The position numbers and the translations under genes are program-made. Of a stretch of 64,000 nucleotides of DNA, positions 24,965 through 31,589 are shown in pieces. The notes beneath the pieces were generated by a model. The model was not told the DNA's origin and did no database searches. It was given only the letters and a program-made list of their open reading frames with translations. This DNA comes from Escherichia coli (GTDB lineage Bacteria > Pseudomonadota > Gammaproteobacteria > Enterobacterales > Enterobacteriaceae): the NCBI RefSeq assembly GCF_001677475.2, contig NZ_CP015229.1; one strand, 5' to 3'. The first letter of the stretch is position 1. Each line of letters begins with the position of its first letter.

Positions 24965-25654
24965 TTATTGCGCTAATTGTTGCTTTATCTGTGCACCATT
25001 ATCATCGAGATATGTCGCAGTAACGATCCCATTAACGTTATTACTTGCTAACCAGTACCGTCGTTGACTGAAGGGTTTTATCATCATATCGCTTTCTTGC
25101 TGTACCTTCGTAGCCCCAATGCTGATGGAAGTGAAAGAGATATTCAGTGGTGTTGGGTTATTAAGCTCAATATAGCTACTGCTGCCGTCGTTACCCAGAT
25201 GCCAACTTATTTTACGCATAGCTTCTTCAGGCGTCATAGTTACAGATTTAGGCCTGTAAAAGATTTTAAGTTGCGTATTCATTGCCAGCGTTAAATGTGT
25301 GGGATCTTGATGGGGAGTTTCTGGCGGCATTTCATAAAGATTTAACCAGAATGCAGATTCGCGATCCTGGGGAAGTGGGTCATGATTATAGATTATCCGC
25401 AATCCTTGTGTTCGTCTCGCAGCCAGGCGGAAAACCGGTGGCAGCACCACAAAGGGGGGAGAAGCAGCTTCTGGGGAACCTTCACCATTATCTACCCAAC
25501 TTTGCACCAGTACCGGATAGTCATTGGTATTGACCAGCATCAGTGTCTTTTCCCGATCGCCATCGCGATAAATCATCCGTGAAGAAGACGGCATGATGCC
25601 GGCTTCCACTGACTGTACGAACAAGACGGTTAAGAGCAGTAAAACGGATTTCAT
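24965..25654 (-). CDS. Fimbrial periplasmic chaperone (PapD-like), second chaperone of the operon
   Basis: 229-aa ORF with signal peptide and PapD-like N-terminal domain pattern (RMIYRDGDREKTLMLVN). Confidence 0.75.
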   Translation of the reverse strand: MKSVLLLLTVLFVQSVEAGIMPSSSRMIYRDGDREKTLMLVNTNDYPVLVQSWVDNGEGSPEAASPPFVVLPPVFRLAARRTQGLRIIYNHDPLPQDRESAFWLNLYEMPPETPHQDPTHLTLAMNTQLKIFYRPKSVTMTPEEAMRKISWHLGNDGSSSYIELNNPTPLNISFTSISIGATKVQQESDMMIKPFSQRRYWLASNNVNGIVTATYLDDNGAQIKQQLAQ

Positions 25655-26985
25655 TGCATTTTCACCAATATATAAGCCGTTGCCCGCACTTTTCCCGCAC
25701 TGACTGTCTGATTTGGCAGTTTCTTCAACCGGGCGATAAAAGAGTAACTATAGCTGGAGTATCCGGGGTGAGTCGCACCTTCTAATGTTGCCCCTTCAAA
25801 TACAGGATACCACCCCGCTGCATTTCCTCCGGGGGTTAACTTCGCGATGCCCGGTTGACCAACCAGCGTCATCGCCGTATCGGGGTGAGCACTGTTAGAA
25901 ATATAGATCCCAACGCCTTTTGCCATCTCTGCTGCGTCATAATTATCAGAGACCAGGGCGCTGACGCCGCCGTTGCTATTGATAATCCCCAGTTTTTGCG
26001 CCGTTGTATATGCACCTTCAGACACCTGGATTCCTAATGCTGTCTGAGTATCGCTAATCCCTGATTGAACCGAGTTACTACACTCGACGCGGACATTAAA
26101 ATTAGCGGTACTTTCCATGCCCGCATTCAGTTGTGATTCTGCAATTGTCGGCAGCAATACTAACGGCGTGGCGCTGCGGGCAACGCAGGTGGCATTGTTG
26201 TAGAGTCGATTTGCCGATCGCATTCCGTAACCAAAACCATTATCAACACCCCAAAAATCATAGTGATCCGCACTGTCCTCTCCCACTTCATCATGAGCAA
26301 ATGGAATACCACTGGTACCGGAAAGCTGAATATAGGCATTAGGCTGAGTGCAGTTATAAGGCGTGCCGGAGGGTTTAGCATACCCCACACCGTCGCCATC
26401 AGTATTGGTATTACCGCAGTAACTGGTTGCGCCAGCGGTATCAGGCAGCGTACTAATACGATAAAGTTCAGCATGAAGAGGAGGGATATCCTGTAAGCGG
26501 ATCTGGATTTTAGTACCCTGAGTGGCATAACTGGTGATGGGCACTTTCTTCCAGTAACGACCAATCGTCACGCCCGCCATGGTCTGCTTGAGACCGACAA
26601 AAGCAAACCAGGTGGCATAGACATCACTCAGACCATCAGGCCCGCCTGCATTGTGAAAGCCACCCACGCGGTCATCGCCATTGGTAGCGACCAGAAAATA
26701 GATGTTTGGCAAATCTGTTGCGTCACATTCCCACAGTACGGAGCTTCCTGACGCGCCACCTGATGTGTAGTTAGTGGAAGGGACGACCGTTGTCGCGAGT
26801 AGCGAGCCTACTGGCGCAAAATAGGTGTCGGTCATATTAATTTTTCCGAACTCAATGAGTGCCGATCTTCCGTCCTCCGTTTGTCCGACACGTGTATTAG
26901 AACAAGTGGCCCAGGCGGATGATTGTATTAGTGCCACCAATATGATGGAGCTAATCAGAATGTGTAAAAAAGTTGATTTAGACAT
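25651..26985 (-). CDS. Putative fimbrial tip adhesin (two-domain fimbrial protein)
   Basis: 444-aa secreted protein downstream of the usher, ending in a fimbrial-subunit-like C-terminal strand (ATAYILVKMQ); size fits lectin plus pilin domains. Confidence 0.6.
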   Translation of the reverse strand: MSKSTFLHILISSIILVALIQSSAWATCSNTRVGQTEDGRSALIEFGKINMTDTYFAPVGSLLATTVVPSTNYTSGGASGSSVLWECDATDLPNIYFLVATNGDDRVGGFHNAGGPDGLSDVYATWFAFVGLKQTMAGVTIGRYWKKVPITSYATQGTKIQIRLQDIPPLHAELYRISTLPDTAGATSYCGNTNTDGDGVGYAKPSGTPYNCTQPNAYIQLSGTSGIPFAHDEVGEDSADHYDFWGVDNGFGYGMRSANRLYNNATCVARSATPLVLLPTIAESQLNAGMESTANFNVRVECSNSVQSGISDTQTALGIQVSEGAYTTAQKLGIINSNGGVSALVSDNYDAAEMAKGVGIYISNSAHPDTAMTLVGQPGIAKLTPGGNAAGWYPVFEGATLEGATHPGYSSYSYSFIARLKKLPNQTVSAGKVRATAYILVKMQ

Positions 26986-27000
26986 CAGGTTTTCTCTGTA

Positions 27001-30362: not shown

Positions 30363-30923
30363 TTAGAGGTAGCTCAGGGTGTATTCTGCGACAGCGGTAA
30401 TTTTACCGGCAGTGGCAGCTGCGCTATCGATAACGAAGTAACGCGCACCGAAGTCGTAGCTGGCTTCAGTATCGCCAACTTTCAGTGTCAAACCCGGTAC
30501 GTTAGTCGCGCCAGCCAGAGTTACTGGGTTACCAGAAGTGCTGGAATCCATTAACTGAATGCCAAAGCCTTTCGCCGCATCGCTGCTGGTATCACGGTTT
30601 CCCATAACACCCGTGCTAGCGTCAACGTCGTAGCCCAGGAAGGTGGTGTTGATTGCCTGATCTGCACCAGTCGGAGCCTGGCAGTTAGACACAGAAACCG
30701 TAAACGGCGTCTGGCCTGCGCTCTGGCCATCAGCTAAAGTTGCACCGAAGTCAGCCATGGCTACGGTCGGCAGCAATACTACTGAATTGGTTTGACCGTT
30801 GATATTTACGGAACAGGTCTGATCGGTTACTTCACCCTGAAAAGTGACTGTCGGTGCAGCCATGGTAGAAAAAGGTAATGCGATAGCTGCCAGCAGAGCT
30901 GCTTTTTTGAAAGTAGAAAACAT
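30363..30923 (-). CDS. Major fimbrial subunit
   Basis: 186-aa ORF with signal peptide, conserved Cys pair, and C-terminal donor-strand-like EYTLSYL. Confidence 0.8.
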   Translation of the reverse strand: MFSTFKKAALLAAIALPFSTMAAPTVTFQGEVTDQTCSVNINGQTNSVVLLPTVAMADFGATLADGQSAGQTPFTVSVSNCQAPTGADQAINTTFLGYDVDASTGVMGNRDTSSDAAKGFGIQLMDSSTSGNPVTLAGATNVPGLTLKVGDTEASYDFGARYFVIDSAAATAGKITAVAEYTLSYL

Positions 30924-30965
30924 ATTAATATCCTTGAAATTTAGAGTTAATATAGAACGAGATAA

Positions 30966-31589
30966 TTAATGCAATTGATACAATCTGACGTTTTTAAAAC
31001 CGGTAAATCTCCTTAACTGTATAAGTGCCTTGAAAATGTAAAAGCCATCACTATCACAAGCAATTTCAAACTTGTTGAAAACCGATATTTTATAGTGACT
31101 AATGTACTTGACATCCTTTTTTAGCAGGGTGTGCAATATTCTTTTGTTATCTATCTTAAAATATAAGTAATAGATATCCCACTCATACCTTGTCAGAGTC
31201 ACCTGCCTGATTTGCTGGTCTTTATCAGTACTTTTAATCAAAGTAATGAGTTTATTCAATTTTATATATCGGCTAATGAATGTTTGCTCTGAAAGTGAAA
31301 AGAAGATATTTCTGTTTTTCATCTTTCTTAGTGAAACAATCATTAAAAACCTGGCCAAATCTGGCAGTTTTGCAAGTATACTTACGTCATCCACTGCGAC
31401 AAGAAGTACGTTTTTGGTAAAGCGGTTATCAAATCTAAGTGTACTTAGGTCATTATTACATGCATTTTGAGAACAAAAAAAACACTCAATAAAAAAACGA
31501 TAATGGTGACCTAGTTTTGCACTTAATCCCTGAAGGTAATATAGATCATCCGAAATGATAATTACCCTTGTTAGTAAGTTCTTGTTCAT
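30966..31589 (-). CDS. Putative LuxR-type fimbrial regulator (MatA/EcpR-like position), AT-rich
   Basis: 207-aa ORF upstream of the major subunit; C-terminus weakly resembles a LuxR HTH (LTRYEWDI...ISHYKISVFNKF); low-GC codon usage makes the call uncertain. Confidence 0.4.
   Translation of the reverse strand: MNKNLLTRVIIISDDLYYLQGLSAKLGHHYRFFIECFFCSQNACNNDLSTLRFDNRFTKNVLLVAVDDVSILAKLPDLARFLMIVSLRKMKNRNIFFSLSEQTFISRYIKLNKLITLIKSTDKDQQIRQVTLTRYEWDIYYLYFKIDNKRILHTLLKKDVKYISHYKISVFNKFEIACDSDGFYIFKALIQLRRFTGFKNVRLYQLH

Follow-up and report, generated by a model that had tools for sequence, protein, structure and literature searches.

A chaperone–usher operon of Escherichia coli with two chaperones, a large predicted tip adhesin and a regulator-like first gene

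Which of the known fimbriae of Escherichia coli is encoded by a six-gene operon with two chaperones and a 444-amino-acid putative tip protein, and is the regulator-like open reading frame (ORF) of 207 amino acids at its head a gene at all? The question is raised by positions 24965–31589 of a 64000-nt stretch of E. coli contig NZ_CP015229.1 (assembly GCF_001677475.2), the whole of which is called the window hereafter. An earlier note, made from the sequence alone, had described the region as a chaperone–usher operon on the minus strand, in the order regulator-like ORF, major subunit, chaperone, usher, adhesin-like subunit and second chaperone. The ORF listing reproduced all six minus-strand ORFs in this order and with the same coordinates, and the Pfam search proposed in that note found the Fimbrial, PapD_N/C and Usher domains, with every structural gene far above the cut-off. 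As in classical chaperone–usher systems, the usher carries PapC_N, Usher and PapC_C domains, both chaperones match PapD_N as well as PapD_C, and Fimbrial-domain pilins (the 186-amino-acid protein and residues 263–444 of the 444-amino-acid protein) lie adjacent and co-oriented. None of the five structural genes is disrupted in the window, all of the operon genes are co-oriented, and the gaps between cistrons are at most 52 nt (with chaperone 1 taken at its longest ORF).

Identity of the operon and its spread in E. coli

The locus was compared with the catalogued E. coli chaperone–usher loci, as had been suggested. The window reads efeUOB-phoH-pgaDCBA-dgcT, a CSS-EAL gene, a 163-amino-acid gene, a 270-amino-acid winged-helix gene, a short-chain dehydrogenase/reductase (SDR) gene and the operon, followed by a divergent two-partner-secretion pair, an acyl carrier protein (ACP)/FabZ/ketosynthase cluster and a tRNA-Ser (GGA). 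From pgaA to acpS the gene order is identical in O157 Xuzhou21, and the operon occupies the position of O-island 47, between dgcT-vmpA-fidL-grvA and the two-partner-secretion genes, the fatty-acid-type cluster and serX. According to the published gene numbers, grvA is z1531/ECs1274, fidL is ECs1273 and O-island 47 spans z1528–z1556; counting genes from ECs1273 makes the usher ECs1278, as expected. Since both the published gene numbers and the gene order fit, the locus belongs to the catalogued E. coli types, and the region is very probably an intact copy of the 'Type 3-like' chaperone–usher operon of O-island 47, which belongs to the gamma4 usher clade by the label in Table S2 of Wurpel et al. 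The fimbrial operon itself is thus already known: it was catalogued between 2006 and 2013, is best known from O157:H7, and belongs to the sixteen fimbrial loci that, as quoted in the literature, Low et al. (2006) counted in O157. The usher has 97.1% nucleotide identity to the single O157:H7 copy, and the 207-amino-acid ORF 98.9% to the O157 Type 3-like locus. Although chromosomal position and gene order are the same as in O157, the window comes from a non-O157 lineage with a different adhesin allele. As a fimbrial operon it is nothing new, being a near-identical copy of a catalogued locus from a widespread and recognisable family.

A megablast search of 5426 complete E. coli genomes found one operon copy per genome in 401 of them, at 95–99% identity. 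The sources of the carriers were taken from an evenly spaced sample of the usher matches (60 rows). About three quarters of the sampled carriers were O157:H7, O55:H7 or O145, with 97.1% usher identity; a minority, with 97.3–98.8%, came from chicken meat or poultry, pigs, an ivory gull, an otter, a frog, fresh water and humans, and included enterotoxigenic E. coli strains. In reviews, O-island 47 is said to occur exclusively in O157:H7, O55:H7 and O145:H28. Contrary to this restriction, carriers outside these three serotypes make up about one sixth of all carriers when extrapolated from the 60-row sample. The source strain of the window has no close relative among the complete genomes, as judged from the efeO-efeB-phoH segment (8336–12049), which is at most 98.6% identical to any of the 5426.

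Several observations weigh against a working fimbria and could be taken as signs of a cryptic relic whose expression or assembly has ceased. In strain N3 (locus L001) the usher gene is frameshifted; several O157 genomes have an insertion sequence (IS) element of the IS3 family in it (IS1203-like where named), and in O145 it is truncated (disruptions seen in matches H26, H27, H64, H68 and H72–H75), and the operon is therefore dispensable in those lineages. In the literature searched, no expression, assembly or ligand of Type 3-like fimbriae is reported, and Low et al. (2006), as quoted there, is cited only for expression of F9 and Yeh among the O157 loci. However, all genes are intact in the window, and every operon gene is under purifying selection, with a ratio of non-synonymous to synonymous substitution rates (dN/dS) of 0.03–0.16 relative to O157. 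In approximately 377 of 400 genomes, the usher is at least 80% complete, and the adhesin family is strongly conserved across bacterial orders. We therefore regard decay of the operon into a relic as improbable, and continue with the reading of an intact fimbrial operon.

The features of the operon and its surroundings are given in Table 1. The major subunit has a signal peptide, and, by reading of the sequence, an AAGGA ribosome-binding site lies 7 nt ahead of its ATG. For chaperone 1, the RefSeq orthologue begins at the eighth codon, which gives a protein of 233 amino acids with a more typical signal peptide. Both chaperones have what we take to be the PapD motif residues, the arginine of G/S-T/S-R-hydrophobic and the lysine of K-I-F-Y-R-P. 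The possible terminator hairpin downstream of chaperone 2 has a minimum free energy of −15.4 kcal/mol (z −2.3 versus shuffles) and was missed by the terminator pattern scan, which gave no excess of sites over shuffles.

Table 1. Features of the operon and its neighbourhood in the window (aa, amino acids; HTH, helix–turn–helix)
Feature	Position	Strand	Evidence or remark
207-aa candidate regulator (receiver-like domain and LuxR-type HTH)	30966–31589	−	ORF list, orthologues, AlphaFold model
Major fimbrial subunit, 186 aa	30363–30923	−	Pfam Fimbrial, E 7.1e-15
Chaperone 1, 240-aa ORF	29576–30298	−	PapD_N, E 1.9e-35; PapD_C, E 7.4e-14
Outer-membrane usher, 840 aa, intact	27001–29523	−	PapC_N, E 1.2e-30; Usher, E 1.9e-152; PapC_C, E 2.3e-21
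Predicted two-domain tip adhesin, 444 aa	25651–26985	−	Pfam Fimbrial at residues 263–444
Chaperone 2, 229 aa	24965–25654	−	PapD_N, E 4e-37; PapD_C, E 4.4e-11
Possible terminator hairpin, then AUUUUCC	24851–24890	−	between convergent chaperone-2 and SDR genes; weak evidence
AT-rich spacer, 1.39 kb, 30–37% G+C	31590–32979		from 207-aa ORF to divergent two-partner-secretion adhesin gene
GrvA (270 aa, ToxR-like winged helix) and FidL/YqeJ-like protein (163 aa)	22039–23347	−	Trans_reg_C, E 2.5e-11
CSS-EAL cyclic di-GMP phosphodiesterase VmpA/PdeT (z1528)	20327–21937	+	EAL, E 2.4e-64; CSS-motif, E 1.1e-13
Two-partner-secretion pair: 1270-aa filamentous-haemagglutinin-like protein and ShlB/FhaC-type transporter	32980–38500		divergent from the operon
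ACP synthase, SDR, FabZ, ACP, aminomethyltransferase and ketosynthase cluster, up to serX	38516–53309		'fatty-acid biosynthesis' part of O-island 47
tRNA-Ser	53503–53590

The two-partner-secretion pair shares the AT-rich spacer with the fimbrial operon and is conserved together with it in a syntenic locus of another species (L002).

The second chaperone and the large tip adhesin

The presence of a second chaperone after the adhesin gene and the size of the 444-amino-acid protein had been regarded as less common features. A wider comparison gave a different picture. The 444-amino-acid protein has 307 homologues, and the best 120 of these are 52–98% identical and, except for one fragment of 365 amino acids, 423–462 amino acids long; they come from Enterobacterales, Acinetobacter, Pseudomonas, Aeromonas and Xanthomonadales. 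Conservation is equal in the N-terminal and pilin halves, with a mean column identity of 61%. A scan of species-representative genomes gave 68 related loci in gamma- and betaproteobacteria, which were annotated with the window proteins. A strong adhesin homologue was found in 67 of the 68, most of these adhesins being approximately 420–470 amino acids long, and the layout subunit–chaperone–usher–adhesin–chaperone holds in 62 of the 67. The usher lies directly upstream of the adhesin in 59 of the 67 and a chaperone directly downstream in 62, and in every one of these 62 the downstream chaperone best matches chaperone 2, never chaperone 1. The adhesin stop codon and the chaperone start codon overlap by four bases (ATGA or GTGA) in 40 of the 62 loci and by one base in 13 more; in the window, the ATG of chaperone 2 overlaps the adhesin stop codon as ATGA (25651–25654). 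This conservation indicates that a second chaperone and a large tip protein are the rule in the CupA/CupD/Stb-type family rather than an oddity, and that the partnership of adhesin and second chaperone is old, the chaperones being orthologous.

The conserved translational coupling suggests that chaperone 2 is probably dedicated to the adhesin, and subunit-specific chaperones have a precedent in 987P fimbriae. It should be said against this assignment that conserved gene coupling is its sole basis.

The best NCBIfam models were those of Salmonella Stb. The usher scored 702 bits on PRK15248, presumably StbC as judged from the adjacent model numbers, and the 444-amino-acid protein matched StbD (PRK15247) over its full length (E 3.7e-33). 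Like the window operon, the Stb cluster (stbABCDE) is a gamma4 cluster with two chaperones. However, both scores fall short of the equivalog cut-offs (996 and 363 bits), and the window operon is therefore a homologue of Stb, not the same fimbria. Wurpel et al. list six fimbrial types common to Escherichia and Salmonella, and the Type 3-like one is not among them. In Pseudomonas aeruginosa, the published descriptions give CupD1–5 as 182, 248, 870, 448 and 238 amino acids, compared with 186, 240, 840, 444 and 229 in the window in the same order. The five-gene order of cupA1–5 also agrees with that of the window operon, although a point against this kinship is that CupA and CupD were compared by their published descriptions. 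Adhesin homologues in other Pseudomonas species are 42–58% identical.

Five Herbaspirillum loci (L075, L076, L080, L083 and L086) have a different layout, in which an adhesin-like protein of 500–785 amino acids faces away from a chaperone–usher operon flanked by a small EAL gene; another Herbaspirillum locus (L077) has the usual order with the EAL gene downstream.

In the structural model, the 444-amino-acid protein is a two-domain tip adhesin, with a receptor-binding domain at approximately residues 27–262 and a pilin domain at residues 263–444. The AlphaFold model has a mean predicted local distance difference test score (pLDDT) of 88.7 and a predicted template-modelling score (pTM) of 0.80. 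In Foldseek searches it matched the two-domain tip adhesins CupB6, LpfD, CsuE and PapG over its full length, and its C-terminal half matched FimF, FimA and FimG with a target-normalised TM score of approximately 0.6. The predicted architecture, an N-terminal lectin-type binding domain followed by a C-terminal incomplete-Ig pilin domain, is that of MrkD, Abp1D and F17G, and the binding domain is modelled as MrkD/Abp1D type. Sequence identity to Klebsiella MrkD and Acinetobacter Abp1D is only 11–13%, and the binding domain of approximately 235 residues is longer by insertions than the approximately 165 residues of these two proteins.

The adhesin gene is also the most diverged part of the operon, with 92% nucleotide identity to O157 compared with 97–99% for its neighbours. 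Its synonymous and non-synonymous divergence from O157 (dS 0.24, dN 0.038) is two to three times that of the neighbouring genes. The divergence is concentrated in the portion encoding the binding domain, which differs from O157 at approximately 12% of nucleotides: 98 of the 243 differences across the 6.6-kb region fall in positions 26165–26964, and 28 of the 31 amino-acid changes lie within residues 27–247. Among E. coli carriers, there are two allele groups of the adhesin gene (50 genomes at at least 95% identity and 350 at 90–95%), so that two natural alleles are available for comparison. Apart from the binding domain, no segment of the operon varies strongly between lineages of E. coli. Variation there is to be expected of a working receptor-binding protein, and the pattern is the one expected for a functional receptor-binding module that is exchanged by recombination or is under diversifying selection.

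In the chaperone–usher pathway, subunits pass the inner membrane by Sec export, are complemented by chaperones through donor-strand complementation and are assembled tip first at the usher. The subunits of the window operon would likewise be exported by Sec and held in the periplasm by the two PapD-like chaperones, chaperone 1 serving the major subunit and chaperone 2, through the coupling of its gene to that of the adhesin, most likely serving the adhesin. The usher would then assemble a fibre of the 186-amino-acid subunit with the 444-amino-acid adhesin at its tip, where the N-terminal domain of predicted MrkD/Abp1D lectin-type fold may bind the ligand.

The 207-amino-acid first gene

The earlier note had placed the 207-amino-acid ORF in AT-rich DNA, which is borne out by a G+C content of 30–36% for the ORF and the DNA upstream of it compared with 46–55% for the structural genes. 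It had also allowed that the ORF may be spurious. A chance open frame would account for the absence of any Pfam or NCBIfam match, the 32% G+C of the ORF and the RefSeq locus tag of its O157 orthologue (RS30970), which is out of series with those of its neighbours. AT-rich DNA is rich in stop codons, but orthologues of no more than 54–56% identity preserve the frame at 204–207 amino acids; they occupy the same position in the syntenic locus L002, and no stop codon was found in any orthologue. Substitutions are mostly synonymous, with six synonymous changes and one non-synonymous change relative to O157, and with pN 0.26 and pS 0.80 (proportions of non-synonymous and synonymous differences) relative to the distant orthologue. 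The ORF is full-length in 380 genomes.

An exhaustive phmmer search across 1.84 billion cluster representatives brought up no more than 11 proteins in the family. Eight of these are distant relatives (24–33% identical) with matching lengths of 195–223 amino acids and shared invariant residues. A profile search raised the number to 21 proteins (90% clustering), all annotated 'hypothetical' and none with a Pfam domain; the named family members are from E. coli, Enterobacter and Pseudenterobacter. Together with a confident two-domain structural model, these results make a chance frame highly improbable. The conservation of the frame indicates that the 207-amino-acid ORF is a real gene, unnamed and so far undescribed as part of the operon. 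The ORF and the co-oriented major-subunit gene downstream of it are 42 nt apart, and the ORF is probably the first gene of the operon. In the syntenic locus, the structural genes are 74–90% identical to those of the window and the 207-amino-acid ORF, GrvA and the FidL-like protein 50–56%; these are three fast-evolving, AT-rich regulatory genes.

What kind of protein does it encode? The AlphaFold model (pLDDT 84, pTM 0.79) consists of an alpha/beta N-terminal domain and four C-terminal helices, that is, a receiver plus a four-helix HTH fold. Its full-length Foldseek matches were RcsB (E 1.4e-4, probability 1.0), followed by NarL, EvgA, FixJ and VpsT, with 197–229 aligned columns. Three of the 11 family members have weak GerE matches (best E 0.0031), the window protein none; the family profile aligned to the C-terminal domain of RcsB with E 0.42, and against PDB sequences nothing fell below E 0.27. 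Within the family, Asp14 and Asp15 are conserved, position 67 is Asp or Glu in all 11 members, Ser86 is nearly invariant and Arg107 is invariant. In a receiver, the corresponding positions hold the acidic pair, the phospho-acceptor, Thr/Ser and Lys, as assigned from the predicted strands rather than by superposition.

Three points weigh against the assignment to response regulators. The protein has no Pfam or NCBIfam match and reaches no Pfam HTH threshold, Arg107 stands where receivers have a conserved lysine, and no histidine kinase was detected by Pfam among the neighbours (18748–24819) and the operon. In the syntenic locus L002, the two-partner-secretion and downstream genes are likewise without a kinase domain. 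Because of the fold, the arginine in place of lysine and the lack of a neighbouring kinase gene, we read the protein as an orphan, atypical receiver-LuxR regulator. It has the predicted receiver and LuxR-type HTH fold in common with regulators of the RcsB/NarL/FixJ type, but its identity to them is only 14–16% and, in addition to the differences above, its family is tiny and unnamed.

This result upholds one half of an earlier suggestion, that the ORF weakly resembles LuxR regulators of the MatA/EcpR type: the LuxR-type relationship stands at the level of the predicted fold, whereas no specific kinship with MatA/EcpR could be demonstrated (hhalign E 0.039, probability 1.3%; BLASTP E 0.029). 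Kinship with YqeH was also considered, and the hhalign match (E 0.013) is not significant (probabilities for MatA and YqeH 1–3%). Both alignments cover the HTH region and have a plausible register, but fall short of significance. The K-12 operon ecpR(matA)-A-B-C-D-E shares its gene order and similar gene sizes with the window operon, and the locus might on these grounds be placed in the Mat/Ecp (E. coli common pilus) family. However, the usher matches EcpC only with a BLASTP E of 0.75, the alignment of MatA with the 207-amino-acid family profile is not significant, as the hhalign values above show, and Wurpel et al. put Mat in the alpha clade and the Type 3-like locus in gamma4. Membership in the Mat/Ecp family, the least probable of the readings considered here, is thus refuted, and only an organisational analogy of gene order is left.

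A VpsT-like cyclic di-GMP (c-di-GMP) binding motif, which we take to be W[FLM][TS]R, was considered for residues 104–107, where the family has a conserved F-[ILMV]-[SN]-R. It was rejected: the tryptophan is missing, and the position is the end of predicted strand 5, at the conserved-lysine site, not an extra helix.

Neighbouring regulators and the proposed control of the operon

The 1.39-kb spacer upstream of the 207-amino-acid gene is presumed to be the promoter and silencing region. RefSeq orthologues have no gene annotated in it, a tblastn search for a decayed small EAL gene, of the kind present in relatives of the 207-amino-acid gene, found nothing in it, and Rfam gave no match between positions 18000 and 39000. 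Silencing of this AT-rich promoter region by H-NS is plausible from its composition and from the cupA/MvaT precedent, cupA being silenced by an H-NS-like protein. A result at odds with a promoter here is that promoter-like hexamers were not enriched in a pattern scan of the spacer (19 found and 21 expected from shuffles).

The earlier note was right about the chaperone–usher operon, but it had missed two characterised regulators nearby, GrvA/FidL and VmpA. VmpA lies directly downstream of dgcT, in agreement with its published position. In strain N3, pgaC and dgcT are truncated with nothing annotated between them, and the EAL gene is frameshifted. GrvA is 32% identical to YqeI (E 4e-38) and the FidL-like protein 23% identical to YqeJ (E 1e-18). 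The pair PsaE/PsaF controls psa fimbriae. GrvA/FidL is, like PsaE/PsaF, a member of the VtrA/VtrC 'co-component' class; MarT, also of this class, activates the adhesin MisL. In Klebsiella oxytoca, the homologous operon has a GrvA/YqeJ-like pair divergently upstream of it, and we infer that GrvA/FidL is a candidate second regulator of the operon. EAL genes flank approximately 15 of the 68 related loci. The Cup loci of P. aeruginosa likewise have adjacent genes for an HTH response regulator (RcsB) and EAL proteins (PvrR, PA2133); the window regulator differs in being an orphan atypical receiver without a kinase, encoded by the first gene on the same strand.

The relatives of the 207-amino-acid protein were then located by their genomic contexts. 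The window group and three other branches (P0008, P0013 and P0015) lie on the same strand directly upstream of chaperone–usher operons. P0012 (Enterobacter pasteurii) lies upstream of YadA-type trimeric autotransporters, and P0011 upstream of a pertactin-type autotransporter in a P4-like element (locus L010, no EAL gene). A small EAL-only gene is found directly upstream of the 207-amino-acid homologue in five contexts (L006, L007, L011, L013 and L014), with fimbriae or YadA-type adhesins downstream; four of these EAL proteins were compared and are 32–53% identical to each other and approximately 24% to VmpA. A divergent ToxR-like gene lies upstream in L007, L011 and L014, each time with an adjacent small gene without a recorded Pfam match. 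The context in L007 is EAL-ORF-B3_4 with no fimbriae adjoining, and that in L016 is plasmid-like. O-island 47 holds the same ingredients (the 207-amino-acid ORF, an EAL gene and a ToxR-like pair) in a different arrangement. In the 68 adhesin-related loci, a hidden Markov model of the 207-amino-acid family gave three weak matches only (E 1e-4 to 9e-4), probably generic LuxR regulators.

On the strength of these associations, the most economical hypothesis is local control of the operon by the 207-amino-acid protein, to which GrvA/FidL and c-di-GMP turnover would contribute. The protein, through its predicted LuxR-type DNA-binding domain, would most likely activate the operon from the AT-rich promoter region, which would probably be silenced by H-NS, and GrvA/FidL and the EAL phosphodiesterase VmpA would be likely further inputs. 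Activation by the 207-amino-acid protein is, on balance, the reading that we favour. Alternatively, the protein may be real and yet not control the fimbrial operon: it could regulate the divergent two-partner-secretion adhesin, act globally like GrvA, or be a non-DNA-binding adaptor. Some relatives are indeed away from fimbriae (L007 and L016), the HTH is too diverged for Pfam, and GrvA, from the same island, acts on the distant LEE (locus of enterocyte effacement) and gad genes. On the other hand, the close, same-strand spacing to the major-subunit gene and the three other branches directly upstream of chaperone–usher operons, together with the two branches upstream of other adhesins, point to local control, and we consider a regulator of other targets rather unlikely, if the most serious competitor. 

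A broader reading can be put forward only tentatively. The 207-amino-acid family may be a hitherto undescribed group of enterobacterial orphan regulators of atypical receiver-LuxR type, usually accompanied by a small EAL phosphodiesterase gene just upstream and often by a divergent ToxR-like/lipocalin pair, which would form a portable 'adhesin switch' cassette placed before adhesins of three secretion types (chaperone–usher fimbriae, trimeric autotransporters and a classical autotransporter); the 207-amino-acid protein, VmpA and GrvA/FidL would then jointly control the Type 3-like fimbriae. If this possibility is true, a local adhesin circuit would be primary, and the published effects of GrvA on the LEE and gad genes would branch off from it. 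The first gene itself is real, unnamed and regulator-like; its relatives precede several types of adhesin, and together with GrvA/FidL and VmpA it could explain how a silent fimbria of enterohaemorrhagic E. coli is switched on.

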